DNA of 64,000 nucleotides from a bacterium. Its GTDB lineage: Bacteria; Hinthialibacterota; Hinthialibacteria; Hinthialibacterales; Hinthialibacteraceae. Made by a program: the position numbers and the translations under genes. Every line of letters begins with the position of its first letter. Position 1 is the first letter of the stretch. This document shows positions 33,701-58,261 of this stretch, piece after piece. The stretch is from the NCBI GenBank assembly GCA_963662285.2, contig CAXXMV010000006.1, forward strand, positions 1,120,001 to 1,184,000, read 5' to 3'. Below the pieces are notes generated by a model. The model was given only the letters and a program-made list of their open reading frames with translations. It was not told where the DNA came from and made no database searches.

Positions 33701-35251
33701 ATGAAGATAACTAAATGTGCAATATTCTGCTTTCTGTTTTCTACCAGTATCATTGGTTTCTGTGCAGATACTTTATTAGACGTACCTATATATGTTACAG
33801 GTGGTTTTTCAGAACCTTCTTGGGAACCTGGTAATGGCGCCGTACCTAATGGTGCGATAGAGGATCTACGGTTATTTGATGATGGCCAGTCAAATGGCGA
33901 TATAGTTGCAGATGATGGAATCTGGACCTGTGTTGTTTCCGGATTAGAGCCTTTTCAAGAATTTGATTGGAAAATCGCCAGTCCTGGTTGGAGTCCTGTC
34001 AATGTCCCCGACTCAGCTCCAACAAATCTTTGGGCTATTGCTGATGAAAATGGTACAGTTTCTTTCATGTTCGATACGAATTTCCAAAATGATGGTTTGC
34101 TGCCCGATGTTGGACAACCCAATAGTATTGGATTTGCCTATTCAGAATCGACCTGGGATGCGCTTCAACCCATAGACACTATTTCGTTAACCGGAAATTT
34201 CCAGACTCAGTTGGGAGGAGATATCGATTGGGATTTTTACAATGAAGAATCGCAAATCTTATTACGGGATGATGGTAACGGTTTTGATCAAATCGAGGGA
34301 GATGATATCTTTACCGGCTCGGTAACTGGATTGCAAAACGGTACGTATGAATACCGGGGAATAATTGAGTTTGATGATGTGTACTTTCCAGAATTTACTG
34401 CCATTGGATTAGCGAATGCTGAGCGGAATCTAAAGTTTAATGTTCTCGACAGTTCTGAGGAGATTGTATTTCAGTTGGATGCAAAAAAATCCCGCTTAGG
34501 TCCGATTGGGGATTCTTCTTCCCCTGGACCTCCATTCTACGCTCATTCAGCCGCTTGGGGGAATAGTTTTACTAATACAGAGGATATGGGAAACGCATTG
34601 GATTTGGTGTATCGAAAAATATTTACCGTCGTTGAACCAAACAATTATACAGTGCGAATACGCGACAAATCATTGAAAGAATATCCTGTATCAGGGAGTT
34701 ATCCGTTTACCACCACTGAGCCAAACCAGGAAGTTCAAGTAGTGTTTGATCAAAACCAATACGAAGATGATTACGAACCTTCATCAAATATTGTTTTTAT
34801 AGTTGATAACAAGACAAAATCACCATTGAACCAATGGGAATACGTACAGCTTGTCGGTGATTGTATGATTGATTTTGGTGGAGAATCGGACTGGAATGCG
34901 GACGATAGTGGATTTGAAGCTTTTGATCAAGGGATCGTTTCAGAGGGTGACCAAGTTGCCGATGATGGCGTTTTCGCTATCCGTATCCAAACAGACGCCA
35001 CGGCGGCTAACAAGCAGTTGAAAGCTGTTGGTAGAAGGCTTGATATGGGTGACGGGCAGTGGGATATTCAGATTGGTGGGCCAGGGGAAGGATTGACCAT
35101 CAACACAACCAATACGAATATTCCTTTCAGTTACACACCGGGTGAATACACTATCCAAATCGATACATTGACTGGTCGCGTCGGTGTAGGAAGCATACCA
35201 CCGGAACGTATGTCGTTTGAGGTTTCTGTAGGTGGATGGGAATTACATTAA
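33701..35251 (+). CDS. Secreted acidic protein with three choice-of-anchor-X-like (DDG..GD..A.DG) repeats and a C-terminal W motif
   Basis: Signal peptide; LFDDGQSNGDIVADDGIWT, LRDDGNGFDQIEGDDIFT, FDQGIVSEGDQVADDGVFA; ends VSVGGWELH. Confidence 0.75.
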   Translation: MKITKCAIFCFLFSTSIIGFCADTLLDVPIYVTGGFSEPSWEPGNGAVPNGAIEDLRLFDDGQSNGDIVADDGIWTCVVSGLEPFQEFDWKIASPGWSPVNVPDSAPTNLWAIADENGTVSFMFDTNFQNDGLLPDVGQPNSIGFAYSESTWDALQPIDTISLTGNFQTQLGGDIDWDFYNEESQILLRDDGNGFDQIEGDDIFTGSVTGLQNGTYEYRGIIEFDDVYFPEFTAIGLANAERNLKFNVLDSSEEIVFQLDAKKSRLGPIGDSSSPGPPFYAHSAAWGNSFTNTEDMGNALDLVYRKIFTVVEPNNYTVRIRDKSLKEYPVSGSYPFTTTEPNQEVQVVFDQNQYEDDYEPSSNIVFIVDNKTKSPLNQWEYVQLVGDCMIDFGGESDWNADDSGFEAFDQGIVSEGDQVADDGVFAIRIQTDATAANKQLKAVGRRLDMGDGQWDIQIGGPGEGLTINTTNTNIPFSYTPGEYTIQIDTLTGRVGVGSIPPERMSFEVSVGGWELH

Positions 35252-35315
35252 AGAAATCGATACGAATACATAAATTCAATCGGTATTTTCGGTCATAGCA
35301 TGAAAGGAACTTTCA

Positions 35316-36452
35316 ATGTCACGATTGTTCAGTAAATTGATTATTGCTTTTATTGGCATCAGTGTTTTTTTAAGTTTAGTGTATGCGGAGCCACAGGTTC
35401 ATGTTATTAAAAATATGGATGTATATCGTGAGAAAGGGCGGTTTGGCGGGTGGCCTGCCAATCATGGGATGTGGCATTGGGGGAATGAGATTCTGGTTGG
35501 ATTCAGCCGGGGGTATTATAAGGATTTAGGTGACCGGCACCATATTGACAGGGAGAAGCCCGAAGAGCATCTTTTTGCCCGAAGCAAGGATGGCGGTATG
35601 TCCTGGAGTATTGAAGATCCTTCCAAGGTTATCGTTCCTAGAGGGAATACGCTTCATGGAATTAAGCCACCTCATCTTATTCCCGTTAAACCAGTTAAAA
35701 ATCAAACTCCAATTAATTTCACCCATCCGGATTTTGCGATGACGCTACGGATGCTGGATGTTAATTCAGGACCTTCTTTGTTTTATTATTCCCACGACCG
35801 TGGACGCAACTGGAAAGGGCCGTTTGAACTTATAATTAATGGTGTTAAAGGTATCGCCGCAAGGACCGATTATCTGGTTGATTCTTCCAAAGATTGCATG
35901 GCTTTCTTAACATGCGCCAAGGAGAATGGCCAGGAAGGACGCCCTTTTTGCGCCCGAACTCAGGATGGCGGCGTCACATGGAACCTTGTATCCCGGATCG
36001 GCCCGGAACCGGAGGGATTCTCAATTATGCCTTCATCAGTTCGGCTCTCTGAGACAGAATTACTTAGTGCAGTGAGACGGCGTGAAGGAGATAAACGCTG
36101 GATTGAAATTTACCGGTCGACCAGTAACGGTTCAAATTGGAGTTTATATAGCACTCCGACTGATAACATCGGTATCGGGAATCCGCCAAGTATGATTCAA
36201 TTACACGATGGCCGGATTTGCTTAACCTATGGTTACAGGGCTGAGCCGTTTAGCATCCGAACTCAGTTAAGTGATGATAAAGGGAAAACCTGGAGCAAAC
36301 CAATTAGCCTGCGCTCAGATGGAGCCAGCCGGGATCTTGGTTATCCACGGACCCTTCAACTGCCTGATGGCGTTATTGTGACGGTTTATTATTTTTGCGA
36401 TCATCTTTCTCCGGAACGGTATATTGGAGCAACTTTGTGGAGAGTAGAGTAG
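35316..36452 (+). CDS. Sialidase-like BNR/Asp-box beta-propeller, secreted
   Basis: Asp-boxes SKDGGMSW, SHDRGRNW, TQDGGVTW, STSNGSNW, SDDKGKTW; DLGYP; signal peptide. Confidence 0.88.
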   Translation: MSRLFSKLIIAFIGISVFLSLVYAEPQVHVIKNMDVYREKGRFGGWPANHGMWHWGNEILVGFSRGYYKDLGDRHHIDREKPEEHLFARSKDGGMSWSIEDPSKVIVPRGNTLHGIKPPHLIPVKPVKNQTPINFTHPDFAMTLRMLDVNSGPSLFYYSHDRGRNWKGPFELIINGVKGIAARTDYLVDSSKDCMAFLTCAKENGQEGRPFCARTQDGGVTWNLVSRIGPEPEGFSIMPSSVRLSETELLSAVRRREGDKRWIEIYRSTSNGSNWSLYSTPTDNIGIGNPPSMIQLHDGRICLTYGYRAEPFSIRTQLSDDKGKTWSKPISLRSDGASRDLGYPRTLQLPDGVIVTVYYFCDHLSPERYIGATLWRVE

Positions 36453-36490
36453 TATTCTAATCTTTCATTAAAAAAAGGAATGGATGGATT

Positions 36491-37600
36491 ATGCCCGAAT
36501 CTGAGAAAAAAGAACTACTGTGGAGTAAGTTGGTTTTACGCTGGACGCTAATTCTGATGGGCGTGATAGCTATAGTTTGGGTATTGTATTGGAGCATATC
36601 AACTCTGGTGCTATTGGCGTTTAGCTTTTTGTTAGCCTACTTGCTTAATCCATTAGTTACAAAGTTAACTCAGCAGGGAGCGCCACGGACTGCATCGATT
36701 ATGATGTTGTTGTTTTTCTTTTTGATTGTAACCATTGGATTTACGCTATACATTGTTCCTAAAATCTCTGATGAAGCGGCGCGATTGATTAATCATAATG
36801 AGGCCTTTGCCAGCGCTACGGAGTGGATAAGCAATAATGTGAATCCCAAATTAGAGAAAATTGGAATCGAAGCATGGGGAGAAGAAGAACTTAGGACAAA
36901 AATCAATTATCTATTCTCTTTGATCAATAGTTATTATCCACAATGGATCAGGCCGACCTTTAACGCTTTTCATTCCATGTTTTCTGGCATAGCCAGTTTT
37001 ATAGTTGGTTTGTTAAGTTTGATGCTGGTTCCTGTGTTTACCTTTTATCTACTACGGGATTTTCCCAAGATCAGCCAATCGTTTTTTGAAATGATTCCTC
37101 CACATTGGCGGGCGATTGTCTCTGACTGGGGAGGCGAACTGGATCATGTCGTTGGTGGTTATATCCGAGGGCAATTCAGCATCGCTCTGTTTTTGGCGAC
37201 CATCAATGCTATCGGCTTGACAATATTGGGCGTCCCGTTCGGCTTCCTGATAGGATTTGTGGCTGGTATGGCTAACATGGTTCCCTATATGAGCATCGTG
37301 GTTGGCCTGATTCCGGCATTGATAATATCATTCCTGGATAAGCCGGAAATTTGGCGCTTGATCTGGATACTAATGATTTTCGGCGGCTCGCAGATGTTGG
37401 AGGGATTTTACCTGAGTCCACGGATTATGGGGCATGAAATTGGTTTGCATCCCGTGTTGATTATGCTGTCTATAATATTAGGCGGTTCAATATTTGGTCT
37501 TGTCGGTATTATACTGGCTGTGCCTACAATGGCGGTTCTTAAGGTAGTCGCAGTTCGGGCGCATCATGAATGGAAGAAAAAGTGGCCTCAGGAGGCTTAG
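36491..37600 (+). CDS. AI-2E (PerM/TqsA) family transporter
   Basis: LAYLLNPLV, FYLLRD, GYIRGQ, VPY, PRIMG...LHPV, GIILAVP. Confidence 0.93.
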   Translation: MPESEKKELLWSKLVLRWTLILMGVIAIVWVLYWSISTLVLLAFSFLLAYLLNPLVTKLTQQGAPRTASIMMLLFFFLIVTIGFTLYIVPKISDEAARLINHNEAFASATEWISNNVNPKLEKIGIEAWGEEELRTKINYLFSLINSYYPQWIRPTFNAFHSMFSGIASFIVGLLSLMLVPVFTFYLLRDFPKISQSFFEMIPPHWRAIVSDWGGELDHVVGGYIRGQFSIALFLATINAIGLTILGVPFGFLIGFVAGMANMVPYMSIVVGLIPALIISFLDKPEIWRLIWILMIFGGSQMLEGFYLSPRIMGHEIGLHPVLIMLSIILGGSIFGLVGIILAVPTMAVLKVVAVRAHHEWKKKWPQEA

Positions 37601-37666
37601 GTGGATTAAGCGCCCTTATTAGTTTGTTCCGCTTTGTTTTTTTGTATTCGTTATTGATTGTCATAT

Positions 37667-37692
37667 AGGGCGCCCATGAAGGACGCCCCTAC
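37667..37692. repeat. GTAG-type REP palindrome
   Basis: Minus strand GTAGGGGCGTCCTTCATGGGCGCCCT. Confidence 0.55.
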
Positions 37693-37747
37693 TGGTTTTA
37701 TTTCGTGTTTCTTTTAGTAAAGGTTCTTTTTTGTATCATAGTATTAG

Positions 37748-37780
37748 TCAAGGGCAGAAAGGACACTGCCCTTGGCGTCC
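37748..37780. repeat. Single REP family A copy
   Basis: TCAAGGGCAGAAAGGACACTGCCCTTGGC, identical to the arm at 60776-60804. Confidence 0.8.
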
Positions 37781-37843
37781 TTTTAGCATTATATTAGGTT
37801 GTATTGATAAGATTTAAGATGAATGTTTTAATGGAGATTATTA

Positions 37844-38803
37844 ATGTCTGGTACTGAAATGAACTATGTTTCGCTGGGGCGTTGCGGGATGAAAGTGAGC
37901 CGGTTTGCTCTTGGTGGATGGACTACATTCGGTGATAGCGTGGCCGATAAGCCCATAATCCGGAATATCCTGCAAACCGCTTTTGATAGCGGAATTAATT
38001 ATTTTGATATAAGTGATATATACAACCGGGGAGAGACCGAACGGGCTATGGGTTCTGTGCTGGCTGATTTTCCCCGGCATGAGATCGTGATAGCCAGTAA
38101 GGTCTTTTTCCCCATGAGTGATGATGTCAATGACCGGGGCTTGTCACGTAAACATATCATGGAATCGATCGAAAAAAGCCTTCAGCGTATTGGAACTGAT
38201 TATCTGGATATCTATTTTTGCCATCGCTTTGATGTTGAGACGCCTATTGAAGAGACAGTCCGCGCTATGGATGATCTGGTGCATCAAGGCAAGATTCTAT
38301 ATTGGGGAACCAGCGAATGGACTGGCGAACAAATAAATCAGGCTCATGAAATATGCGATAAGCGGAACCTCTATTTCTCTCAAGTCGAGCAGCCGGTCTA
38401 TAATCTTTTAACCCGTAATGCTTTTGAGAATGATGTGCAACCAACCGCTACCCGGTTGGGTAAGGGATTGGTTACTTTTAGTCCATTGGCCTATGGAGTT
38501 TTGACGGGGAAATATGATAACGGAATTCCCCAAGGTACAAGATTAGATCAAATTGAGTGGCTGCGGGACCGGTATTATAATGAAGAGTGTCTTAACCGGG
38601 TGCGCCAAATGGAAACCTATGCTAAGCAACTTGGATGCACCAGAGCGCAGCTGGCTTTGGCCTGGATTGCAGCCAATCCTGCGGTTTCGAGCGTTATAAC
38701 CGGAGCGACCAGCGTTGATCAACTCAAAGATAATCTAGGCGCTATCAAGGTTAAACTTGATAGTTCCATGATTGATAATCTCAATAGGCTGTTTCCTCTA
38801 TGA
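37844..38803 (+). CDS. Aldo/keto reductase (Kv-beta-like subfamily)
   Basis: LGRCGMKVS..LGGWTTFG, GLSRKHI, TDYLDIYFCHRFD, YWGTSEW, FSPLA.G.LTGKY. Confidence 0.95.
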   Translation: MSGTEMNYVSLGRCGMKVSRFALGGWTTFGDSVADKPIIRNILQTAFDSGINYFDISDIYNRGETERAMGSVLADFPRHEIVIASKVFFPMSDDVNDRGLSRKHIMESIEKSLQRIGTDYLDIYFCHRFDVETPIEETVRAMDDLVHQGKILYWGTSEWTGEQINQAHEICDKRNLYFSQVEQPVYNLLTRNAFENDVQPTATRLGKGLVTFSPLAYGVLTGKYDNGIPQGTRLDQIEWLRDRYYNEECLNRVRQMETYAKQLGCTRAQLALAWIAANPAVSSVITGATSVDQLKDNLGAIKVKLDSSMIDNLNRLFPL

Positions 38804-39190
38804 TTCTAAAAACGTCAATTAGATTATAATTCAAAAGTCAATTGAAAAATCTATAGTTTTAGAAAACAACCCCCTCTTGGGAGAGGTTAGGAGAGGGTTG
38901 ATATTAATCACTCTCGCAAAGAAAAAACCAGCAATATGAGATTAACTTTTTAGGTGAAATGAAACAATATTGTGTTATCATACTGATTACAAATGATTTA
39001 TTTAATTATTTGTAAATTAACCTCCGTTTTTTAGGATGATGCAAGATATGAAAAATCGATATAAAACTACTGTAAGTAATGTTAATGGATCGCAAGACAA
39101 GCGATCCATTGCTGCTCTTCATTGATTGAGATGGAATTGGTATTAAAATCATATTAATAGGTTAGAAGGGATTGATCCGTCGAAGAGCAA

Positions 39191-39223
39191 CCCCCCTCTA
39201 ACTCCCCCCCAACTTGGGGGGAG
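39191..39223. repeat. REP-like family C copy
   Basis: CCCCCCTCTAACTCCCCCCCAACTTGGGGGGAG. Confidence 0.75.
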
Positions 39224-39269
39224 AATTTTTGTTTTACCTAATTCAACATATATAAAGGATTGACATAGT

Positions 39270-39683
39270 TTGACAGACGCTAAACTGACTGAAAATAAAC
39301 AGGTTGTAGAATTTCGTGTTCGATACAGCGAGACGGATCAGATGGGTGGAATATATAACGCCCGCGTGTTGGAATGGTTTGAAGTCGGGCGCACGGAGTG
39401 GTTTCGCGGTAAGGGATTGGCATATACTGAAGTCGAAAAGAGGGGTATTTTCCTGCCCCTGGTTGAAGCGCATGTCGAGTATAAGGGACATGCTGAGTAT
39501 GATGATTTGCTCAAAATGACGGTTACTGGCTGCATCGCTGGTAAAGTCCGGCTGCGTTGCGATCATGAGATTGTTCATAGCGACAGCGGTAATCCTGTTG
39601 CGCAGGGTTATACAATACATGCCTGTTTGAATGAATCGGGCAAGCCGGTTCGGCTTCCGGAATGGCTGTTGGAGATAGTTTGA
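39270..39683 (+). CDS. YbgC/4HBT-family acyl-CoA thioesterase
   Basis: RVRYSETDQMG..YNA..LEWFEVGRTE hot-dog fold motif. Confidence 0.9.
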   Translation: MTDAKLTENKQVVEFRVRYSETDQMGGIYNARVLEWFEVGRTEWFRGKGLAYTEVEKRGIFLPLVEAHVEYKGHAEYDDLLKMTVTGCIAGKVRLRCDHEIVHSDSGNPVAQGYTIHACLNESGKPVRLPEWLLEIV

Positions 39684-39769
39684 TTGGATAGGTTATATCA
39701 AGTGTTAGACTGATTGGTGTAAGTCTTTAATATGGAGTGTTTTATTTGTAGTTTATTTTTGTGGATTTA

Positions 39770-39804
39770 CCCCTCACCCTAGCCCTCTCCCGTGGGGAGA
39801 GGGG
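39770..39804. repeat. REP-like family B copy
   Basis: CCCTCACCCTAGCCCTCTCCCGTGGGGAGAGGGG, one mismatch from 42138-42171. Confidence 0.8.
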
Positions 39805-39910
39805 ACTTGGTTGTCCGATTTTATAGAGTGAATTTATATTAAAATTAGTTTAAATCATATAAAGTTAGAACAAATCTAGAGTTTGAAAAATATATGTCTG
39901 TGAGAGCGTT

Positions 39911-41545
39911 ATGAAAATATCTGACCGAATGTTATTGAGTGGAAATGAAGCAATCGCGCTGGCTGCCTATAAATCTAAAGTGGCTTTAGGCGCTGGTTAT
40001 CCAGGGACGCCATCTACTGAAATATTAGAGAATTTTTCAGAATTCGGCGGGCAGGCGCAATGGTCGCCCAACGAGAAAGTGGCGCTTGAAGTGGCCATTG
40101 GAGCGGCGTTCGGTAAGACGCGGGCTATGGCGACTATGAAGCATGTGGGATTGAATGTCGCCGCTGATCCATTGTTCACCGCCGCCTATACCGGAGTACA
40201 GGGCGCTTTGGTTATTATCTGCGCCGATGATCCGGGAATGGCTTCGAGTCAGAACGAGCAGGATAACCGCAACTACGCCTCCGCCGCCGGACTGCCTATG
40301 CTGGAACCTTCTGATTCTCAGGAAGCCTATGATTTTACTGTGGCTGCTTTTGAACTATCCGAAAAGTGGAATATCCCGGTCATCCTGCGGGTGACGACGC
40401 GCATCTGTCATTCCAAAACGGTTGTTAATGTTAAGGATATTGAGGCGCCCTCTTATGAAGCGGATTTCGTGCGGGATATTAAAGGGCGGGTTATGATCCC
40501 GGCTTACGCCCGTATCGCTCATAAAAAACTACGTCAGAAACTTGATGATATCGCCGCGTGGAATGAAACAAGTGATTTGAACCAGGTGTTTGAAGGCGAT
40601 AAGTCTCTGGGAGTGATTGCATCGGGCATCTCTTTTCAGCATTCACGCGAGGCGGCGCCGGGGGCCAGTTTATTTAAGCTGAGCGTCAGTTATCCATTGC
40701 CATTAGAGAAATTACGTAAATTCGCCGCATCGGTGGATCGTTGCGTGGTTATAGAAGAGGGCGACCCCTATCTAGAAAAAGCTATACTGGCGGAAGGCGT
40801 CAAAGTTGAAGGCAAAGCGCAGATGTACCGCTTTGGAGAATTAAACGTTGACCGGGTTTGTCGAATAATCGCTGGCGACGAGTCTCCCGAAGCCGTTCCT
40901 GCGCCGGGTAAACCGCCTCAGTTATGTCAGGGATGCGCGCACCGCACCGTCTTTCAAATATTGAGCGATCTGGATTGCATTGTATCCGGCGATATCGGAT
41001 GTTATACGCTGGGCGTGCTGCCTCCATTTAGTGCGATGGATTCGTGCGTATGCATGGGCGCCAGCGTCAGCATCGGATTGGGATTGCGCCATGTGCTTCC
41101 CGATGAACAAGCCAAACGCGTGGTTAGCGTAATCGGGGATAGCACCTTCATGCATAGCGGCATCACTGGTCTGGTGGATATGGTTTACAACAAACCCAAA
41201 ACCGGACATGTAGTGATTATTCTGGATAACGGAACTACAGCCATGACCGGTTTACAGGAACATCCGGGAACAGGTCGTCTGCTGGATCATTCCGCCTCCG
41301 CCAAAATCGATTATGAGGCGCTGGGTAAATCAATTGGCATCCAGAATGTCCATACCATTGATCATGTGAAATTTGAGGATGAGTTCAAAAAACTGTTGAT
41401 GGAAGCATTAGAGAAAAATGAACCATCACTTCTAATAGCCCGGAAAGAATGCGTCCTTGCCGTGCGGAAAATTAGGCAATATGAAAAAGAGGCCGCTGAA
41501 AAATCGAAATGTGAGCGCCAGTGTCAATGTGAAGGGCAGGAGTAA
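39911..41545 (+). CDS. iorA: Indolepyruvate:ferredoxin oxidoreductase alpha subunit
   Basis: GNEAIA, YPGTPSTEI, NEKVALE, MKHVGLNVAAD, SSQNEQD, LCQGCAHR, GDIGCY, GDSTF.HSG, DNGTTAMTG.Q. Confidence 0.95.
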   Translation: MKISDRMLLSGNEAIALAAYKSKVALGAGYPGTPSTEILENFSEFGGQAQWSPNEKVALEVAIGAAFGKTRAMATMKHVGLNVAADPLFTAAYTGVQGALVIICADDPGMASSQNEQDNRNYASAAGLPMLEPSDSQEAYDFTVAAFELSEKWNIPVILRVTTRICHSKTVVNVKDIEAPSYEADFVRDIKGRVMIPAYARIAHKKLRQKLDDIAAWNETSDLNQVFEGDKSLGVIASGISFQHSREAAPGASLFKLSVSYPLPLEKLRKFAASVDRCVVIEEGDPYLEKAILAEGVKVEGKAQMYRFGELNVDRVCRIIAGDESPEAVPAPGKPPQLCQGCAHRTVFQILSDLDCIVSGDIGCYTLGVLPPFSAMDSCVCMGASVSIGLGLRHVLPDEQAKRVVSVIGDSTFMHSGITGLVDMVYNKPKTGHVVIILDNGTTAMTGLQEHPGTGRLLDHSASAKIDYEALGKSIGIQNVHTIDHVKFEDEFKKLLMEALEKNEPSLLIARKECVLAVRKIRQYEKEAAEKSKCERQCQCEGQE

Positions 41546-41551
41546 ATTAAG

Positions 41552-42171: not shown

Positions 42172-42253
42172 ACATGCAGGAATACGTAAACATAAATGTC
42201 GGAATAACTATGCTGGGATTTAATAATATTCTGTCTAATGGTGGGAAAGATAC

Positions 42254-48516: not shown

Positions 48517-49533
48517 ATGAGAAAAGTTTTGTTTTTGCTACTGCTGTGCGCAGCTCCGTTGATGACTCAGGCGCAACTATTTGAACCTGGTAATGTTATC
48601 TTTGCTGATCCATTTTATTCACCAGATGGTCAAATTGTTGAGTTGAAGATCACTGGTAATGAAGCTGAAGTAATCAATGTCGTCCGGTGGGATTTGGGCG
48701 ACACAGATCGCCGTCGCGCTTTGGGATTGGATGTTGATCCCAGCGGCAATGTCTGGGTAGGTCTGACTGCCGCTTATGGTGATGACAGCGAATTCCCTGA
48801 AGGAATCGGCGAAATTCTACGCATCGACAGTCAAGGCAACCAGCAAATATTTCAGACCGATATAACAAAAGTAACTTTCCTTACTGCTGTCGGTACTGAC
48901 GAAGTTATTATTCAGAGTAATGTTGCGACTGATAATTTTGCTCTGGGTTATAAGGTCGAAAATGGTGAAGTAGTAGATTCTCCCTATTATGAAAAAACAG
49001 GTTATGGTGAAGCTCTGCTGCTGCCTGACGGTCGCTTGCTGATGGGTGATCATGTTACTGGTGGAATTCTATTATTTGATAAAGCTGGTGGAGCATCTAC
49101 TGGCATGTTCTCTGAAGTTTTGGGTGCTGATGGTAATGCAAGAACGGTCCGTTCGCTGACCTATAATAATGAGATAGGCGCGGTTATCGCTTCTCTGCAA
49201 GATCAACACACCTTCCTGCGTATAAACTTGAATGGTGAGATCGAAGAAGAATATAATGGAACCGCTGATGGATTTACCGGAGTGTGGGGCGTCGCGCAGA
49301 TACCTGGAACAACCCAGTTCATAACTGGAAACCATAATGTTGCAGATTTAGCTAATACTTTGGCTATTTTTGATGCCAATGATCTGGCTGCCGGTCCACG
49401 CTTGATTGAAATTACATCTGGTTTTGAGCAAGCTGGTTTGGAAGCTGGAACCTCGTTCCAATCATTCTTTAACATCGCTGTAGTACCAGGCGCTGAATTC
49501 CCGGTTGGCCTTGCTGAATGGCAATTGTTCTAA
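48517..49533 (+). CDS. Secreted beta-propeller-like protein with a C-terminal W motif
   Basis: Signal peptide (…TQA), blades GLDVDPSGNVWV and LLPDGRLL; ends VGLAEWQLF. Confidence 0.75.
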   Translation: MRKVLFLLLLCAAPLMTQAQLFEPGNVIFADPFYSPDGQIVELKITGNEAEVINVVRWDLGDTDRRRALGLDVDPSGNVWVGLTAAYGDDSEFPEGIGEILRIDSQGNQQIFQTDITKVTFLTAVGTDEVIIQSNVATDNFALGYKVENGEVVDSPYYEKTGYGEALLLPDGRLLMGDHVTGGILLFDKAGGASTGMFSEVLGADGNARTVRSLTYNNEIGAVIASLQDQHTFLRINLNGEIEEEYNGTADGFTGVWGVAQIPGTTQFITGNHNVADLANTLAIFDANDLAAGPRLIEITSGFEQAGLEAGTSFQSFFNIAVVPGAEFPVGLAEWQLF

Positions 49534-49645: not shown

Positions 49646-50659
49646 TTAATTTTTTGATGTATCGCTGATGATGCGGTAGGCTTCTGGATTCCGGTCGCTG
49701 AGGACGCTGTCGCGGAACATTTCGCCCTGTTGGCCGGATGAGAAGCCGGGGGCGATGCGTCGGCGGTTCAGGTCTATATCGGTAATGATCATCCCCGCTT
49801 CGTAGCCCGCATTGGATAGTATCTGACCATAGGGATCGACGATGCCGCTGCGCCCGATGGGGTCTCTGGGTCTCCAACCATTACCGTCTTGTACTCCCCG
49901 GCTGACGACGGCTAGATACTGGTCATTGTCGATAGCCCGGCTGCGGATCACTATCCAATCCAACTCCTGTCCCCAACCCGACCACCAGGTAGGCCAGAAA
50001 ACCAGTTCGGCGCCTTTTAACATAAAGACGCGGCTGGATTCAGGAAAACTAAGGTCATGGCAGATTTGTATGCCGATTGTTCCGAAATCGAGTTTGAATA
50101 CGGGGAAATAATCGCCGCGTACTACTCCTTTTTTGAGTTCCGTCTGGGTGGGATGAACTTTGTCGTAGTATCCAGTGATGGAACCGTCGCGCCCAACAAC
50201 AATGGCGGTGTTGCGCCTGGTTCCGTCTCTCTCGGCGACCACGGGGAAGATGATGTGCATCTTATGTTTTCTGGCGTTATCTCTGATGGAGTTCAAGGCC
50301 GTGAAATCCGGTATCTTCAGCCCTTCCATATTAATGGCGCCCTCACCCAGACAGGCGATATCGGCGTGGGCTTTTCCTGCTTGATCCAAATGTTGTAATA
50401 TCCATTTCATCTGCCAGGCGCGGATTGCTTCAGGAGTTTCGCCTTCCTCCCAACACGGTTGTTGAAGGATGGCGACCTTAACTATACGTTTTTTAGATTG
50501 CTCAGCTGATTCGGCTGTATTAAGAGAAATTACCAATAATGAACAAGTAAATAGAACTAAGGTAATAGGTATGAGTAAGCGATGAGTTTTGGAATGTAAA
50601 CATGTTTTAATTAGTCGTCTAAACAATCGGGTAAGAACTTTATGATATTGGTTTTTCAT
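49646..50659 (-). CDS. Carbon-nitrogen hydrolase (nitrilase superfamily) with an N-terminal TM/signal segment
   Basis: Catalytic triad context: CLGE, YDKVH, ICHD..FPE; also RAIDN. Confidence 0.9.
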   Translation of the reverse strand: MKNQYHKVLTRLFRRLIKTCLHSKTHRLLIPITLVLFTCSLLVISLNTAESAEQSKKRIVKVAILQQPCWEEGETPEAIRAWQMKWILQHLDQAGKAHADIACLGEGAINMEGLKIPDFTALNSIRDNARKHKMHIIFPVVAERDGTRRNTAIVVGRDGSITGYYDKVHPTQTELKKGVVRGDYFPVFKLDFGTIGIQICHDLSFPESSRVFMLKGAELVFWPTWWSGWGQELDWIVIRSRAIDNDQYLAVVSRGVQDGNGWRPRDPIGRSGIVDPYGQILSNAGYEAGMIITDIDLNRRRIAPGFSSGQQGEMFRDSVLSDRNPEAYRIISDTSKN

Positions 50660-51105
50660 GAGGTTTACTCCGCTTTTTTAGTTTATAAGTTTTTCACTAC
50701 GGATCATTACATTAATATATAATGATCCGTAGTGGATTGAATAGGAGTGTATAGTGATTGTGTAGTAAGCGTATGTTATCCGATTAGAGAGTTTTTTATA
50801 ATTATGTTCCGTAATTCGCATTTCTAAAAAAGCCGAAAAAGAAATCCTTCTTTTCTTATTATCACCCAAAAACATAAATTATCCTCATTACTATAATCAT
50901 CCATTTTGTATAGTAAATATACAAAAAGTAACGAAAAAAGGTTTTATTGATATTTTTGTATTGATATATATATTGGTCTATCGAAAAAATAAATAAATAC
51001 TGTTGACTTCTCAATTGTAATGGATAAGTTCCTCTAGATAAAGTATTAATATCTGCTTGGAGACGCATAATGGAAAACAGACAAATTCAGGAAGGTTATT
51101 GACTA

Positions 51106-52920
51106 ATGAAGAAAGTATTTGATATTTATCTACCTTTCATCGTGTTTGGTTTTTGTGTGTGTATGGTCTTTCTGGTTCCATTGGCAATGGCGCAAGATGT
51201 GGAAGACGAGATTCCTACGGCGGTGATTCAACTTCAGGCAGTAACTGAGCAAGACCTCACTGATAATGGGATCACCACGGGTCGAGCTACAGGTTTACCC
51301 GTAGTCGGTTATGGAACCACCGTTTATCTTTTGGGTAGTGGAATACCAGTGGAAGAAACCGAGATCATAGGATACCAATGGACCATCACTGGTGATGATT
51401 TCTTATTCGACTCAACCGAGCAGAATCCAACTTTTGTTCCTGCAGTCGTAGGAACCTACAAAGTCGAGTTGGTAGTAACGGATTCTGCTGGAGAAAAGAG
51501 TAAACCGGCTAGCTTGGATATCACGGCGGCGAAATGGCTAGGGGTTGCGAATTGCGCGATATGTCATTCTGACACCCCTCTCAAACTGGGTAACCGATTC
51601 GAAGAATGGAGCATGACGGGTCATGCTGCGTTTTTCGCGGAAAATATCGATCACGGCGCAGCTTATTATGGTGAGCGTTGCATCCATTGCCACACGGTTG
51701 GATACGATGAACTGGTCGATAATGGAGGTTTTGACGATGTAGCCAGGAAATTAGGCTGGACATACCCCGAAACCAAGGAAGCAGGGAACTGGGCAAAAAT
51801 GCAAATGGATTACCCTGATCTAGCCAATTTGGCTAATATTCAATGCGAAAACTGCCATGGACCGGGAGGTTCGCATTACGGCAACAGATTTAAGATTGCC
51901 ACCACTTTCGATTCCGGGATGTGCGGTTTCTGTCACGATGCGCGTGGCGGCGGTAATCATGTCAAAAACTACCAATGGGATACGTCTAATCATGCGAGTT
52001 TCCCCCCGATTCGTTCTGGTCCAGGCAGTGAAAGCTGCGTACCATGTCATACCGGTATCGGCTTTGTGATGACGCACGATGAAGATTACGCAACTCATAA
52101 GCTCTCGACTGAACCCTCAGCTATTGGTTGCGCTGTTTGTCACGATCCGCATAATGAGGATAACGAGCATCAAGTGCGCGTGGTTAAAGATGTCACGCTT
52201 GGAAACGGAGTCGTGGTGACGGCGGAAGAAGCTGGATTAGGCGCTCTCTGCATAAACTGCCATAAAGCGCGAACCAATGTGGATGAATATGCTTTGGAAT
52301 ATCACAGCCGCTTCGGACCCCATCACGGACCGCAAGGCGATTTGGTCAAAGGCACGGGTGGTTATGAATATCCTGATATTACCTATACCTCTTTTTCGCC
52401 TCACATGAAGGTAACTGGTGATTCATGCGTGACCTGTCACATGGCTGAACCGCCTGAAGATGCTCCAGATCGAGCTGTTGGACTCCACACCTTCCGAATG
52501 TCGGCTGCAGCAGGGGAAATTGAAGGAGTCACTGAAGACGTCGTCAACACGAACGCCTGCGCGAGATGTCATGGTGAAATGGAATCGATCAATTATATGG
52601 CTAAAGGCGACTATGACGGAGACAACGTGCGGGAAGGCATCCAGGACGAAGTTAGCGGCTTGATGGAATTAGTTGGTCATCTGCTTCCTCCATACGGTTC
52701 TCCCGATGTCGCTGTGGCGGATACTTACACCGATGCCGAACTGAAAGCGGCGTATAACCATATCTTTCTAGAAGAAGATAGAAGCCAAGGCGTCCATAAT
52801 CCGCAATACGCTGTGCAACTCTTGCAAAGCTCTTACTTCTCGATGACCGGCCAGAATATTCCTAATGCATATATGCTCATTGAATGGACGACGCCTGTGG
52901 ATAATTGGTCGATATACTAA
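51106..52920 (+). CDS. Secreted nonahaem c-type cytochrome with a PKD-like N-domain and a C-terminal W motif
   Basis: Nine CxxCH motifs (CAICH, CIHCH, CENCH, CGFCH, CVPCH, CAVCH, CINCH, CVTCH, CARCH), DRSQGVHNP near the C-terminus, signal peptide; ends TPVDNWSIY. Confidence 0.9.
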   Translation: MKKVFDIYLPFIVFGFCVCMVFLVPLAMAQDVEDEIPTAVIQLQAVTEQDLTDNGITTGRATGLPVVGYGTTVYLLGSGIPVEETEIIGYQWTITGDDFLFDSTEQNPTFVPAVVGTYKVELVVTDSAGEKSKPASLDITAAKWLGVANCAICHSDTPLKLGNRFEEWSMTGHAAFFAENIDHGAAYYGERCIHCHTVGYDELVDNGGFDDVARKLGWTYPETKEAGNWAKMQMDYPDLANLANIQCENCHGPGGSHYGNRFKIATTFDSGMCGFCHDARGGGNHVKNYQWDTSNHASFPPIRSGPGSESCVPCHTGIGFVMTHDEDYATHKLSTEPSAIGCAVCHDPHNEDNEHQVRVVKDVTLGNGVVVTAEEAGLGALCINCHKARTNVDEYALEYHSRFGPHHGPQGDLVKGTGGYEYPDITYTSFSPHMKVTGDSCVTCHMAEPPEDAPDRAVGLHTFRMSAAAGEIEGVTEDVVNTNACARCHGEMESINYMAKGDYDGDNVREGIQDEVSGLMELVGHLLPPYGSPDVAVADTYTDAELKAAYNHIFLEEDRSQGVHNPQYAVQLLQSSYFSMTGQNIPNAYMLIEWTTPVDNWSIY

Positions 52921-52973
52921 CGTTAACAAAGAAGAAATAATCTATTCAGATTATTTCTATTGTCTCTCTAGGG

Positions 52974-53007
52974 AAAAAACCCTCGCCTTTAGGCGAGGGC
53001 TTTTTTT
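52974..53007 (+). terminator. Intrinsic terminator
   Basis: CCCTCGCCT-tt-AGGCGAGGG followed by c and T7. Confidence 0.88.
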
Positions 53008-53094
53008 ATTTGTAAGCGTTAACATTTTTATTTGTGATCGTTTAACCTTCTGAACGATAAAGTAGACTTCGTAATAAGTTTCTGGGGAGAGATA

Positions 53095-55539
53095 TTGATT
53101 ATGAAGCGAATTGCTCTTTGTTTAGGTGTATTTGTAATTCTTCTGCTGCTGATAATATCGATCATCAAGTTTGATAATATTTCAACAACTACTAATGAAA
53201 TAAATCAAAGAATTTCAACGCCTAATAATGTGGAACAACCACTTCTGACTCAACCGGATGATGCCAAAAATCACAATAGTGCTATTCAATCTAGACCTAG
53301 TCAAATATCTGCGTTATTAAATACACCCACTCCCGCAGAAATCATTCCTCAAACAATAACCATTAATGGTTTAGTGGTTGATGAGAAAAATGAAGCAGTA
53401 TCTAACGCTGATGTTTCTGTAGAAATATATAAAAAGGCAGATTTGAAGAAGACGGAGAAGCGTAAATCATTGGATGATGGTTCTTTTAATTTCAAACTAA
53501 ACGATGCGCAAACCTACAAACTAATCGTAAGTCATGAAGGTTATATTCCGTCTAAATATACTGGAGGTTTTACGGATCACAATCCACGGATCATATTGAA
53601 GCGCCTGGGTAAATTCATTGGCCGGGTGGTTGATGAGTTAGAAAAACCCGTGCAATTCGCCAATGTTGTGATCAAGCCCGTCACAGGCGCAGCCCGGATT
53701 CTGTTGAATTTACAGACGGATCAGGGTGGCGCGTTTGCAACAGAGGAAATTTTACCCCCTGGTGAATATGAAATTGCTGCAACCCAGGATGAATATCATG
53801 ATGTTGGTGAGGGAAGTCTTAAACAGGAAATAACGCATCCTGTGGAAAAGGTAACGTTGAGGCTGCTTTCTGAGGTGTTTGAACTGCAAGGCCGCGTGAT
53901 TGATTACAGAACGAAAAATGGCGTTCCAGGAATGAAAGTCGTCATGCAGTCATGGGGATATGGTGGAACATATTCAGGTCAAGTAGGCGAAGAGACCAGT
54001 GATGATAAGGGGGCGTTTCATTTTAAGAATATTCCTCCCGGAGAATATGTAGTGAGCGGATGGAAGCCAGCTGACGATTCCAATCCATACCGTTTTGCGG
54101 ATCGATGCAGGTCGGTGGTTGCTTCAATGCGCCATAAATCCATGAATGAAATAATTCTTTATGCAGCCAAATCAATCGAAATTTCGGGTAAAGTCATTGA
54201 TGCAAAACGAAAACCAGTTTCCGGCGCTAAAATCATCTGCGCTGAACCAGGTGGAGGAATGGATGCAACGACGGATAAATCAGGTCAATTCAAGCTGATA
54301 TTTCCACCGTCTGAGTTGCACAAACCATCCCGCTACCGGCTTCTGGCCAGTAAAAAAGTAGATGACAAAACCAGGTATTCATTTAGCCAATGGCTGGTGA
54401 GTGAGAATGGTGATCCTATTCGTAATGTTGTGTTGACCTTGGAGGAAGGGATAACCTTGAAAGGCCGGGTGCTATCGCGCCAAGGGGCGCCTATTCCTGA
54501 TGCGGCGTTGAAAATTAAGAATAGATATACCAGTGAATCTTCTGAGACGAAATCAGACGATGCCGGAGCGTATGAATTTTTAGATATCATGCCTGTGAGT
54601 TTGATCGACAACGCTTATCAAAATGCATATTGGCTAAAGGCCAATGCTGAGAATTATTCAGAAGCATTGCATTTTCTTAACCCTTCAAGCGATCAGCAAG
54701 AGATGATCCGCGATATCATTCTTGATGAATCATTAATGATAAAAGGCAAAGTCACCGATTCTGAAAACAGGCCTATTAAAGATGTCTGGGTCGATGCCAG
54801 CCTTCCCGGACAACCGGGCAAATCGGAAATGACTGACGCCGATGGTCTATATGAATTTAAGAATTTACCTTCCGGGCGTTATGATCTGATGTTTCAATAT
54901 ACCAAAAGACCAATGAGATCAGGTTATTTATGGGGGGTGCAGGCGGGTGAAGAGAATGCTGATATTAAACTTACGTTCCAACCAATTTCTTTAAATGTAA
55001 GTCTGGATATTCATGAAGACGTTGACCGGGCGGCGCCGATATCAGCCAATATATATAGAAAAATGGAGGATGGATCATTGGCGGAACGCAATGGAGTTAA
55101 GGTTTCGCTATCTTCATCCTCATTATCCATAATGATGTGGGAGCCGGGCATATATCATTTGCGCTGTTATGTTCCAAATTGTCCTATGGCGGGCGCCTGG
55201 GTGGTGGTAGAGCAGGATATGGAGGAAGATGTAATTGAGATAACTGTTCCGATTGGCCCGCCGAAACCGATGAATTCCATCACGGGAATTATCCAACAGA
55301 TGGAAGGATTTACCTGTCGTTTTATCCAAAGTCCTTTATGGAACCAAGCGCCTGTCGGACCTTCGGGAGAGTTTAGTTTGACCGATATTCCTGATGGATT
55401 GGTTGATCTGGTTTTATGGGTATACGACGACCAAAGAGGAATGCCCATTAATGTTGATGCGTTGATGAATATGCGGGTTGAAGGCGGCCGGACAATTAAT
55501 ATTGGAGAGATATCCGTCGCTGATTTCTTTCATCCATGA
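53095..55539 (+). CDS. Membrane-anchored protein with repeated carboxypeptidase-regulatory-like (CnaB/transthyretin-like) domains
   Basis: N-terminal TM and repeats of G.V.D....PV..A.V...TD..G.F....PPG.Y. Confidence 0.85.
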   Translation: MIMKRIALCLGVFVILLLLIISIIKFDNISTTTNEINQRISTPNNVEQPLLTQPDDAKNHNSAIQSRPSQISALLNTPTPAEIIPQTITINGLVVDEKNEAVSNADVSVEIYKKADLKKTEKRKSLDDGSFNFKLNDAQTYKLIVSHEGYIPSKYTGGFTDHNPRIILKRLGKFIGRVVDELEKPVQFANVVIKPVTGAARILLNLQTDQGGAFATEEILPPGEYEIAATQDEYHDVGEGSLKQEITHPVEKVTLRLLSEVFELQGRVIDYRTKNGVPGMKVVMQSWGYGGTYSGQVGEETSDDKGAFHFKNIPPGEYVVSGWKPADDSNPYRFADRCRSVVASMRHKSMNEIILYAAKSIEISGKVIDAKRKPVSGAKIICAEPGGGMDATTDKSGQFKLIFPPSELHKPSRYRLLASKKVDDKTRYSFSQWLVSENGDPIRNVVLTLEEGITLKGRVLSRQGAPIPDAALKIKNRYTSESSETKSDDAGAYEFLDIMPVSLIDNAYQNAYWLKANAENYSEALHFLNPSSDQQEMIRDIILDESLMIKGKVTDSENRPIKDVWVDASLPGQPGKSEMTDADGLYEFKNLPSGRYDLMFQYTKRPMRSGYLWGVQAGEENADIKLTFQPISLNVSLDIHEDVDRAAPISANIYRKMEDGSLAERNGVKVSLSSSSLSIMMWEPGIYHLRCYVPNCPMAGAWVVVEQDMEEDVIEITVPIGPPKPMNSITGIIQQMEGFTCRFIQSPLWNQAPVGPSGEFSLTDIPDGLVDLVLWVYDDQRGMPINVDALMNMRVEGGRTINIGEISVADFFHP

Positions 55540-55682
55540 CAAAACCTATCTGCAATGGCTTTCATACTTTCTGCAAGTAACTCTTATAGTTCAATAAAAG
55601 ATACTTTAATCCGCCTCTATATGATAAAATATTAATAGAAGATTGTATGAGCAATAACACTGGTTTTACATGGAGAACGACC

Positions 55683-56033
55683 ATGAAGATACCGGCTCAA
55701 GCGGAACTGCTTAGAATCTATATTGGCGAGAATGATAAATATAAAGGCAAGCCGCTCTATGAAGCGATTGTCGACCGGGCGCGGGAAGAGAAACTGGCGG
55801 GCGCCACGGTGCTGCGCGGCCTGTTGGGGTTCGGCGCCCACAACCGGATGCATACCCATAAAATTCTGCGCCTGTCAGAAGACCTTCCCTTGGTTATAGA
55901 AATAGTTGATTATCCAGAAAAGATCGCCCAATTCGCTCCACTGCTCGATGATATGATCGAGGAAGGATACGTCACCTTGGAGAAGGTGAATGTTATTGCT
56001 TACCGGGTCGGGGATGATAAGAAGGATGTTTGA
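55683..56033 (+). CDS. DUF190 family PII-like protein
   Basis: LLRIYIGE.D...GKPLYEAIV, GATVLRG..GFG, LSEDLP.VIEIVD. GGAGA RBS before the ATG at 55683. Confidence 0.93.
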   Translation: MKIPAQAELLRIYIGENDKYKGKPLYEAIVDRAREEKLAGATVLRGLLGFGAHNRMHTHKILRLSEDLPLVIEIVDYPEKIAQFAPLLDDMIEEGYVTLEKVNVIAYRVGDDKKDV

Positions 56034-56234
56034 TGACGTAATACTCAGTAGGCTAAAGAATGATGATGGTTGTTAATTTTAACCAGTAAAATTACTCATT
56101 GCCTCTTTTCGGGGGAATGAGCTAAAAACCCCTTTATGCTTTCTTCCCTAATCTTTTTGCAAATCATTACATCTCTATCATACATGTATTCATGATTTGA
56201 TTGATAATAACGTTATCAAATAAACGTCACTAAC

Positions 56235-58261
56235 ATGTCTGGAGGTGACAACATGTATGTTAAAAGGCGTATTCATCAAAGAAGGAAAATGATATTTAGA
56301 ATAAATGGAATTTTAACTTTTCAAATATTAATAATTCTTATTGCTATAGTAGCGTCACAGGGAATTTGCTCTGAAATTGAAACCATCCACAATCCCTTAT
56401 TAACTATTCCACCCGGGTACTCAAAAGGGGTAACTTCCGTCGTTGTTTTTTCAGATGATTCTCGAATCATAACGGGGTCTGGTGATGGCGTGATTATATA
56501 CTGGGATAGTATATCCCTCGAGATGATTAGAATGTTCTTTGATCATGAAGGCGGCGTGACTGCTTTGGCTATTTCGGCGGATGAGGGGAAATTTTTATCC
56601 GGCAGTGGAGACAATAGCGCAAAACTATGGGATTTGGAAACAGGAGAAATCATCAGTCAATTCGAAGGGCACTTAGGCGCAGTAAACAGCGTGGCTTTCT
56701 CGCCAAAGGGCGAATATGTACTTACCAGCAGCAATGATGGGACTGCCAAACTGTGGAATAGTACTAATGCTAAAGTAGTGCATACATTTAGTGGACATGA
56801 AGATTCTGTAAATTCTGCGGTTTTCTCTCCTGATGGGTCTCATGTTATCACTGGATCACAAGATCAGACAGCGCGTATTTGGAACTTGGAGAAACCAGAC
56901 CAACCAATCAGGATTATAGAACATACAGGAAGCATAAATAATGTCGAGTTCTCTCCTGATGGAACTAAATTCCTTACTTGTGGGCAAAATGTTATCCTAT
57001 GGGAGTTGCATAGCGGGAAACCTCTTCATGAATGGTCAACATCAAATTCTTTTACTCCTTGCGCTTTTTCAAAAGATGGTAAGCAGGTTTTTGTTGGTTT
57101 TAATTTGTATGATGTTGAGAGTGGAAATCTAGTTGAGTCATTTTTTAATCATTCTTATACTCCACGAAGCAATGCTTTTGTTCATGATGGGAAATCTTAT
57201 GTAAACGGTTTTACTATATGGAATCTAATACAGGGAAATCTGAACAACCTACCTTTATTCGCGGTTTATATCTTGCGCACATTGCAAACGCTGTATTTTC
57301 ACCTAATGGAAGGACTGTTCTTTTTGCTTCTGGTCGTTCAGGGCAAAAACCGATTGATCATTCAAAGCAATTAACTCCGGAAAGTGGTGAAATATCTGTA
57401 GGTTCAGTGACAATGTGGGACATTATTACCGGGGAATTGTTATTGACTCTTCCCGATCATGCTTATCCTACTGCAATTGCGTTTTCTAGAGACGGCGCAA
57501 AGATTGCGACAGGCGAATCTTGTAAATATGAGCGTCCCCATCTGCGTGTGTGGAGCGCTCAAACCGGGGAATTATTACAGGCTTTTCCCTCTTTCTCTGG
57601 CATGGTGAAAAAATTGTCGTTTTCACCAGATGTTCATAAGATTGTTATCATACATTTCAGTGAAAATCGTGAAATGGCGGAAATTTGGGATGTAGAGAGT
57701 GGTGAACTGATTCAACAATTAACAGTGGATGATATACCTCTAACGGATATTTCTTTCTCGCCCGATGGAAAGAAGGTTCTCGCAGGAGACTATGACGGAA
57801 ATCTTAAACTATGGGATGCGGAGACGGGTGAATTACTAAAAATGTGGATTGGGCATGATCCAAATAAAGTTACCACAGTCGGTTTCTCACCAGATGGAAC
57901 AAAAATGGCTTCAGGAGGTGAGGACGATATGGTGAAGGTATGGGATATGAAAACAGGCCAACTTCTTCAGACCTTATACCAAGTAACTATTTACTCTTTA
58001 GCCTTCTCTCCCGATGGAAACTATCTTCTTGGTGGATCTTATTCCTCATCTTCAAGCGATTCTGGCGATATTTTTATATGGGATGTAAACAGTGGTGAGC
58101 AATTGGTCCGTTTTCGTGGGAACCATATATTATCGAGATCGGTAGCATTTTCGCCCGATGGAGGGCTAATTGTGACCAGTGGAAGTGATGGTTCAGCGAA
58201 AATATGGGACGTAAGCGAATTCATCAAGGATTCTTTTGTTCAAAGGTGGAGTTTATATTAA
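56235..58261 (+). pseudogene. Secreted WD40-repeat protein split by a single-base frameshift near 57221 (ORFs 56235-57374 and 57218-58261)
   Basis: Both ORFs carry GH..V..VAFSPDG..GS.D.TAK.WD repeats. Adding one G at ATATGG^AATCT gives ...FTIW-ESNTGK... and a continuous protein with a signal peptide, ending SFVQRWSLY. Confidence 0.75.

Follow-up and report, generated by a model that had tools for sequence, protein, structure and literature searches.

Four exported proteins with a common C-terminal ending

The DNA analysed here, referred to below as the window, is a 64,000-nucleotide stretch of contig CAXXMV010000006.1 (positions 1,120,001 to 1,184,000; C6:1120001-1184000 in our contig numbering) from a bacterial genome of 7.29 Mb in 8 contigs with 44% GC. 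Four genes on its forward strand encode proteins whose last nine residues, here called the tail, end in register around a tryptophan at position -4 from the C-terminus. The first gene (33701..35251) encodes an exported protein of 516 aa that comprises a signal peptide, choice-of-anchor X repeats, an X25-like beta-sandwich domain, a Pro-rich linker and the tail VSVGGWELH (35222..35248). The second (48517..49533) encodes an exported beta-propeller protein of 338 aa, without a family in NCBIfam or Pfam and with propellers as its best structure matches in the PDB, which ends in VGLAEWQLF (49504..49530). The third (51106..52920) encodes an exported protein of 604 aa with PKD and multihaem c-type cytochrome domains, which ends in TPVDNWSIY (52891..52917). 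The fourth is a WD40 propeller gene (56235..58261) present as two overlapping open reading frames (ORFs), 56235-57374 and 57218-58261, separated by a single frame change near 57216-57235; its hydrophobic N-terminus lies on the upstream ORF and its tail, SFVQRWSLY (58232..58258), on the downstream one. This interrupted gene is either a pseudogene or the product of an assembly error. WD40 paralogs elsewhere in the genome are intact (583-679 aa), and some of them finish with a Y/F variant of the tail (for example, ..EVTNYELYR).

The four C-termini thus read as given in a preliminary description of the locus, and its remark that the cytoplasmic proteins of the window lack such ends also stands, as no other called gene of the window carries the motif; the product of 35316-36452 has a tryptophan at -4 (..ATLWRVE), yet does not match. 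The choice-of-anchor repeats proposed for the first protein were recovered by the NCBIfam model NF041940 (choice_anch_X; 41.6 bits over three stretches against a cut-off of 25, E 7.3e-11), this protein being the only one of the four with a choice-of-anchor match above cut-off. Two further statements hold in part. The proteins had been described as having four different folds; they belong to four unrelated sequence families, but to three fold classes, as two of them are propellers. A signal peptide had been ascribed to all four; signal-peptide-like N-termini are present on 33701-35251, 48517-49533 and 51106-52920, whereas the hydrophobic N-terminus of the fourth is located on the upstream ORF.

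The tail is widespread in the genome and largely confined to proteins with signal peptides

Gene calls, signal-peptide classes and family groupings were obtained with our own heuristics, in the form of crude scripts. A dicodon-based caller yielded 5399 genes (87.6% coding), and the signal-peptide test, which considers alternative start codons and picks out 44% of the proteome, is therefore lenient. Within this gene set, tryptophan occupies position -4 in 247 of the 5399 proteins, 2.99 times the background, as compared with 1.2-1.5 times at -3 and -5. The ending W.[LIVM][YFHW] is carried by 130 proteins, hereafter the strict carriers, where 2.3 would be expected from the internal rate of the same 4-mer, and 114 proteins match the stricter pattern of the preliminary description. 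An extended set that admits one additional residue, or F/Y in place of W, amounts to 169 genes, approximately 3% of the proteome, so that the tail reaches far beyond the four proteins of the window.

The enrichment among signal-peptide proteins over cytoplasmic ones that the preliminary description had put forward as a check was clearly observed: strict tails were found in 118 of the 1760 proteins with a signal peptide and no further transmembrane segment, and in 12 of the 3639 others (odds ratio 21.7, p 8e-45). Several of these 12 exceptions are fragments or frameshifted genes, and one is a cytoplasmic NTP transferase ending in WKIW, a match of the chance type that is to be expected. The position of the motif is equally restricted. 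It is found at the very C-terminus in 130 proteins and followed by a single residue (mostly E, D, N, Q, R or K) in 29, while at each distance from 2 to 11 residues from the end there are 0-6 copies, as compared with 2.2 expected. Furthermore, tail genes cluster along the chromosome, 58 of the 169 having another tail gene within three genes (28.9±6.3 in random sets).

A side observation concerns the stop codons. The 130 strict tail genes end in TAA (83), TAG (35) and TGA (12), as compared with 2683, 1260 and 1456 in all 5399 genes, which corresponds to an underuse of TGA (odds ratio 0.27, p 6e-7). Selection for an exact chain end might account for this avoidance, as might high expression.

The tail behaves as a free linear peptide motif

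The consensus of the tail is T-x-V-x-[DNE]-W-x-[LIM]-[YFH]-COOH. In the 130 strict tails, the invariant W at -4 (130) is preceded by D (39), N (26) or E (22) at -5, V (98) or I (22) at -7, S, P, A, D or N at -8, T (84) or V (24) at -9 and a weak preference for P/G at -10, and followed by S (47), E (27), M (19) or Q (10) at -3, L (79), I (30), M (12) or V (9) at -2 and Y (85), F (24), H (20) or W (1) at -1. Conservation begins at -10/-9, with an information content below 0.35 bit further upstream. The chain ends at the aromatic residue in the logo of the 130 tails, and no hydrophobic stretch is present, which bears out the earlier assertion that the motif is accompanied neither by a transmembrane helix nor by a large sorting domain.

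At the conserved T, all four codons are used (ACC 30, ACA 20, ACG 17, ACT 17); the S at -3 is encoded by both TCN and AGT, the L by six codons, and the synonymous codons of V are likewise all in use. Consequently, selection acts on the peptide and not on the DNA.

In the two families compared, a linker of varying length and composition (PPERPSL.. in one; GAEFP, EIT or AATSGGS in the other) comes after the last conserved strand, and only then the tail. The AlphaFold2 model of 33701-35251 (mean predicted local distance difference test score, pLDDT, 84.9; predicted template-modelling score, pTM, 0.77) places the end of the last strand at residue 496 and gives residues 508-516 a pLDDT below 50. 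That of 48517-49533 (pLDDT 92.6, pTM 0.88) shows residues 323-338 as coil, with a pLDDT below 50 for residues 334-338. Since the linker is variable and the last nine and five residues, respectively, are left unstructured in the two models, the tail appears to be a free linear motif.

Carriers of the tail

The 130 strict carriers fall into 99 full-length families, and into 76 components when any local similarity is allowed. Their median length is 528 aa, as compared with 395 aa in other signal-peptide proteins. Lipobox-like signals are rarer on tail proteins (6 of 169) than on other signal-peptide proteins (123 of 1607), and the same is true of signals resembling those for twin-arginine translocation (3 of 169 versus 107 of 1607).

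A Pfam scan was conducted with 32 carriers, consisting of the four window proteins, eight selected because a pseudopilin gene adjoins theirs, and 20 drawn at random from the 169. It revealed GH42-like, Laminin_G_3 (three domains), CBM9 (three proteins), CotH together with LTD (three), beta-lactamase (two) and Peripla_BP_6/ANF_receptor (two) families, as well as fn3, CAP, and WD40 or other propellers, while 13 of the 32 gave no Pfam family at the thresholds used. A prepilin-motif protein of 252 aa (C2:782878-783636), which adjoins another tail gene, itself ends in the tail plus one residue (..SRVSQWSLYD).

Conservation and lineage range

The tail is retained within the families of its carriers. 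In the choice-of-anchor X family of 33701-35251, the tryptophan (W513) is invariant in all 13 members, down to 32% identity; ten of them end in W-x-[LVM]-[YFH], two carry one extra residue and one ends in W. In the propeller family of 48517-49533, 33 of 37 members end in W-x-[LIV]-[YFH], two end in Q, one has an extra E and one is without the tail. Some homologs are labelled Omnitrophica/Omnitrophota, where OLB16 is reported to have been placed formerly (PMC9324843).

In other genomes, the tail was counted as a DNA pattern with the reversed pattern as control, and a genome was taken to pass when it had at least 10 matches and at least three times the control; related genomes do not count as independent. 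The pattern V-x-x-W-x-L-Y-stop gave 43 matches in the genome of the window, as compared with 7 for the reversed pattern, while a broader one (RTN..NTNYWYTRR) was dropped as too noisy. The range test covered two phyla. Within the phylum of the window (35 species, one class), 28 of the 35 genomes pass, the weak ones being G001, G002, G024, G026, G027, G029 and G030. In the second phylum (75 species), where loci of the choice-of-anchor X family occur in records under the title 'Candidatus Sumerlaeota bacterium', and for which a slightly wider pattern was used, 29 of the 75 pass (for instance, 55 matches versus 3 reversed in G101, 51 versus 3 in G097 and 38 versus 4 in G098), and 19 have at most two matches. 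G046, which reaches the bar through a repeat with an in-frame stop only, was left out of the count. The tail-free clades of this phylum comprise the G041-G058 block and G104-G111. The occurrence of such tails in Sumerlaeota/OLB16 proteomes, mentioned in the preliminary description, is thereby borne out.

In the tail-poor genome G106, no recurrent end motif was recognised by eye among 98 signal-peptide-like proteins of at least 200 aa in 400 kb. In a deep-branching relative (G001, family f4), at least eight large secreted proteins (L040-L047) have the variant end [VI]-x-x-W-R-[LV]-[YF], with 7 matches to W-R-[LV]-[YF] versus 0 in the control. The variant is real but limited to two or three paralog groups whose similarity reaches upstream of the tail, and it is weak as a sign of receptor co-evolution.

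Homologs of the window cytochrome carry a known sorting domain at the place of the tail

A phmmer search with the window cytochrome against 1.84 billion representative sequences gave 3167 matches at E up to 1e-3, and the ends of the best 150 of them were sorted by regular expression. Of these, 58 look like domains of the type IX secretion system (T9SS), 36 terminate where the cytochrome domain does, or close by, 12 end in ..F[YF]RV.., nine are W-tail-like and 35 are of other kinds. When the 48 shortest of the 58 T9SS-like homologs were scanned with NCBIfam, the T9SS sorting model TIGR04183 was found at the extreme C-terminus of 45 (the misses being P0198, P0193 and P0189), and it was absent from the 12 other homologs scanned. 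The nine-residue tail therefore occupies, on homologous cargo, the place held in other phyla by an established signal for outer-membrane export and attachment.

Matches to the T9SS domain are scarce in the genomes of the two phyla. The genome of the window has a single TIGR04183 match of 26.1 bits, below the cut-off of 27, and a search for SprA_N gave 0 matches in it, as it likewise did in the control genomes. That the tail-free genomes of the second phylum use the T9SS instead was ruled out by a TIGR04183 scan, which returned at most one marginal match per genome, in 10 of the 75.

Other recurrent endings were noticed alongside. The ..F[YF]RV(x)2-5 end follows an extra C-terminal module in P0062, P0084, P0102, P0104, P0105, P0122, P0123, P0138, P0144, P0148, P0172 and P0207; ten of these 12 homologs were scanned with NCBIfam, and no sorting model was found for it. 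For the GH42-like tail protein at C6:51545-54265, eight homologs were found, all of which lack the W tail; six of them, GH42-like/DUF3604 proteins from other metagenomes (P0053-P0058), end in ..[IVF]FLPLV[LM][RK]N(W)(S), which could represent a further C-terminal tag, likewise without a name. Within the window, the adjacent genes 20472-21083, 21107-21421 and 21451-22152 encode small membrane proteins that have a C-terminal stretch in common, ..ILDLLESGK[IV]NPxECxELLGAVS...

Secretion machinery and linkage to pseudopilin-like genes

The genome encodes a diderm cell plan, with one Omp85 match, a DcaP-like porin ending in ..ATLMYKF and eight secretin genes. Three clusters resemble type II secretion systems (T2SS; F, G, H, J, K, L/M-like and D components), and one type IV pilus cluster and one Tad cluster are also present. 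At C6:874111-874776 (L002), the end of a T2SS-like cluster, lies the gene of a methyltransferase-family protein of 221 aa with a signal-peptide-like N-terminus, adjoining the DcaP-like porin. A further locus (L004, C8:420422-429567) encodes a secretin of 1057 aa that has an STN domain as well as a TPR region at its N-terminus. Beside it lie genes for a PilM/PilN fusion, for a protein with a cohesin domain (PF00963, E 6.9e-8), for a FliG-like product and for a pseudopilin.

The genome also contains approximately 148 GspG-like paralogs of around 200 aa with the prepilin motif GFTLIELL, nine of which, when scanned, reached 49-58 bits on the GspG model (cut-off 88.85). They have the motifs LTTPVxYMSxxPxDxF and SNGLxSxGDI in common. 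A GspG-like gene is the immediate neighbour of 28 of the 169 tail genes, as compared with 8.4±2.8 for random genes and 11.9±3.2 for random tail-less signal-peptide genes, and none of 500 draws reached 28. These genes are the sole family enriched beside tail genes; family 1040, considered as a general partner, was rejected as a case of local duplication. In most pairs the two genes share a strand, the tail gene being the upstream member, with gaps of -3 to about 250 nt, and among the secreted same-strand upstream neighbours of GspG-like genes 37% carry the tail, as compared with 10% genome-wide.

The linkage recurs in the second phylum. In G101 and G097, a prepilin motif lies on the same strand within 300 nt downstream of 12 of the 106 tail-pattern sites, where 0.28 would be expected under uniform placement and about 1-2 by a rough estimate that allows for gene order; within 2.5 kb, it accompanies 27 of the 106 sites, as compared with 8.8 expected.

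Candidate readers were sought among the peptidases and PDZ proteins of the genome. It encodes four S41 peptidases, three of them tricorn-like (about 1100-1200 aa), about eight PDZ proteins and the one Omp85; none of these is tail-specific, and the S41 and PDZ proteins resemble a housekeeping set (HtrA in two copies, RseP, CtpA) plus the three tricorn-like enzymes, one of which adjoins a tail gene. A complex prediction for a GspG-like protein (g4018, residues 27-202, 9-row alignment) with the last 60 residues of the tail protein translationally coupled to it (g4019, 12-row alignment) scored 0.00 and, being run without controls, speaks neither for nor against binding.

A possible sorting role for the tail and its alternatives

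From these findings, we tentatively favour a reading in which the tail serves as a sorting tag, short and free at the C-terminus, of soluble proteins that a diderm bacterium exports by Sec, and routes them beyond the periplasm; it seems to us the best account of the sequences, ahead of a docking role and, further behind, of a processing mark. The presence of the T9SS sorting domain at the same position in cytochrome homologs fits such a role. The sequences establish that the tail exists, where in the chain it may stand, which proteins carry and conserve it, how far it ranges among lineages, that it matches a T9SS domain in position, and that its genes are linked to pseudopilin-like ones; we infer that it is read, by which receptor and route, and that its cargo is bound for export or surface attachment. 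Carriers would first be exported by Sec and folded in the periplasm, where c-type cytochromes receive their haem, so that haem attachment would be included for the cytochrome. A dedicated receptor requiring the chain end would then bind the unstructured tail, and the cargo would be routed across or onto the outer membrane, much as the approximately 75-residue T9SS C-terminal domain does for related cargo of other phyla. The likeliest route would be an apparatus of the type IV-filament/T2SS type, in view of the three T2SS-like clusters, the eight secretins and the approximately 148 GspG-like paralogs linked to cargo genes. A more specific proposal, that the tail is a linear signal for type II/type IV-filament export, read by the cargo-adjacent pseudopilin paralogs or by an unseen receptor, seems to us doubtful. 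These machines are not known to recognise signals other than folded, conformational ones.

Several observations weigh against the sorting reading. No PDZ-bearing GspC was seen in the three T2SS-like clusters, and pseudopilin-like genes also pair with tail-less secreted proteins, which outnumber those with the tail among their same-strand upstream neighbours (26 versus 15). None of the candidate machineries follows the tail through the 75 genomes of the second phylum, and no reader was identified: prepilin-motif (PF07963) genes number 28-94 in all 75, tail-free genomes included; the N-terminal TPR part of the 1057-aa secretin is found in 70 and does not track the tail; the GspK marker PF21687 is found in 62, and is strongest in tail-free ones; and a 642-aa protein of no assigned function, encoded beside a secretin, has a counterpart in none. 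Moreover, for some carriers the family (Peripla_BP_6/ANF_receptor, CotH or beta-lactamase) does not make the destination obvious. The position rule also has its exceptions, as one extra residue is tolerated in the 29 proteins mentioned above, and in P0061 (602 aa, 59% identity), which among full-length representatives is closest to the window cytochrome, the tail is followed by three residues (..VPVGEWSLYGVE), which is either a true exception to the rule or a sequence error.

The alternative that survives best, although we consider it unlikely, is that the tail is a non-covalent tether which docks its carrier, in the manner of a miniature dockerin, to a partner such as the GspG-like pilin paralogs or their filament, or to another component of the outer membrane or surface. 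Such a tether would accord with tail genes and pseudopilin-like genes being linked in both phyla, with a tail that is free behind a linker, with the tail on at least one prepilin-motif protein (C2:782878-783636), and with carriers such as the binding-protein families and the cytochrome, which would need to remain cell-bound. Pseudopilin-like genes are, however, equally abundant in tail-free genomes and are paired with tail-less proteins as well, and only 28 of the 169 tail genes have a GspG-like neighbour. In addition, what homologs carry at the equivalent position, the T9SS C-terminal domain, is a translocation signal, though that domain too ends in surface attachment.

Less probable still is a mark for processing or turnover, in which a C-terminus-reading protease (CtpA/Prc, a tricorn-like S41 enzyme or HtrA) would read the tail through its PDZ domain as a signal for removal, degradation or stress. 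The YxF ends of outer-membrane proteins (OMPs), which trigger stress signalling through DegS, provide an analogy, and the strict chain-end position, the aromatic last residue, the four S41 peptidases and several PDZ proteins of the genome and the tricorn-like gene beside a tail gene would all suit this mechanism. Yet these S41 and PDZ proteins look like the usual housekeeping set, the tolerated polar residue is at odds with a classic PDZ pocket, and a degradation tag that is invariant in orthologs and present on some 3% of the proteome is hard to explain.

The notion that the tail is a purely structural element without a signalling function, namely a folding cap or the closing beta-strand of a small domain that the carriers have in common, is largely refuted and retains very little probability: T at -9 and V at -7 do alternate as in a strand, but there is no conservation upstream of -10, the carriers represent 76 unrelated architectures, the preceding linker is Pro/Gly-rich and variable in length, and AlphaFold2 leaves the tail unpacked in two folds. 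An artefact of composition, of gene calling (the calls being our own, with a few chance matches such as the transferase ending in WKIW) or of a DNA element overlapping stop codons is refuted by the 130 tails seen versus 2.3 expected, by a C-terminus that is the same whichever start codon is chosen, by freely varying synonymous codons and by reversed-pattern controls that stay 5-10 times below the counts in 28 of the 35 genomes.

If the sorting reading with a T2SS-type route were correct, it would bear on the long-standing question of how the T2SS chooses its cargo, and two uncultured phyla would possess a T9SS-like 'tag and export' system made of T2SS parts. For annotation, the exported or surface proteome of these uncultured polymer degraders could be recognised by a simple end-of-protein rule. 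The set of tails could serve as training data for a curated model, and a synthetic tail peptide as a handle for fishing out the receptor.

Comparison with known C-terminal signals

No model in NCBIfam 20.0 or Pfam covers the tail, in line with its designation as a candidate novel signal in the preliminary description: NCBIfam returned no sorting model for the four full-length window proteins (E up to 1) or for twelve sixty-residue ends (E up to 10). Nor was a description of the tail found in the literature, in a search that left out subscription journals and supplements.

The tripartite signals, i.e. LPXTG/sortase, PEP-CTERM/exosortase, GlyGly-CTERM/rhombosortase and MYXO-CTERM, resemble the tail in being C-terminal, lineage-specific and present on many unrelated exported proteins, and both occur on choice-of-anchor domain families; GlyGly-CTERM, moreover, marks T2SS cargo. 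These signals need a motif, a transmembrane helix and a basic tail, whereas here the end comes 1-4 residues past the tryptophan, without a hydrophobic helix. The WxL domain of Gram-positive surface proteins likewise has W-x-L near the C-terminus, but it spans about 150 or more residues with two motifs and belongs to monoderm Firmicutes, and the window proteins gave no Pfam WxL match.

Other signals lie, like the tail, at a free chain end. The OMP beta-signal or YxF end, recognised by BamA/BamD and by the PDZ domain of DegS, is also a short free C-terminal motif of diderm exported proteins with an aromatic last residue. It has hydrophobic residues at -1, -3, -5 and -7 and occurs on beta-barrels, whereas the key residues of the tail are -9, -7, -4, -2 and -1, with S/E/M/Q at -3 and D/N/E at -5, and its carriers are soluble folds (propellers, beta-sandwiches and cytochromes); the OMP end of the same genome, ..ATLMYKF, differs from the tail as well. 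PDZ-type ligands have a hydrophobic last residue with a free carboxylate; the 130 strict tails end at the aromatic residue, while 29 others have one extra polar residue, and no PDZ partner specific to the tail was found among the PDZ proteins of the genome. The eukaryotic signals PTS1 (-SKL, read by the TPR domain of PEX5) and KDEL would work in a similar way, in that a soluble receptor recognises a handful of residues with which a folded protein ends, though they differ from the tail in kingdom, compartment and sequence.

Also among the closest counterparts is the T9SS type A domain (TIGR04183/PF18962), which, like the tail, is located at the extreme C-terminus of Sec-exported, folded and unrelated cargo, in dozens to hundreds of proteins per genome. 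That domain is folded and comprises some 72-75 residues, whereas the tail has nine and bears no sequence likeness to it; neither model matched the window proteins or the 12 ends scanned. To our knowledge, the C-terminal sorting signals of bacteria known so far either combine a motif, a membrane helix and a basic tail, or are folded domains of 70-80 residues. A free nine-residue tail on about 3% of a proteome, recurring in two phyla, would thus represent a third design of C-terminal sorting signal.

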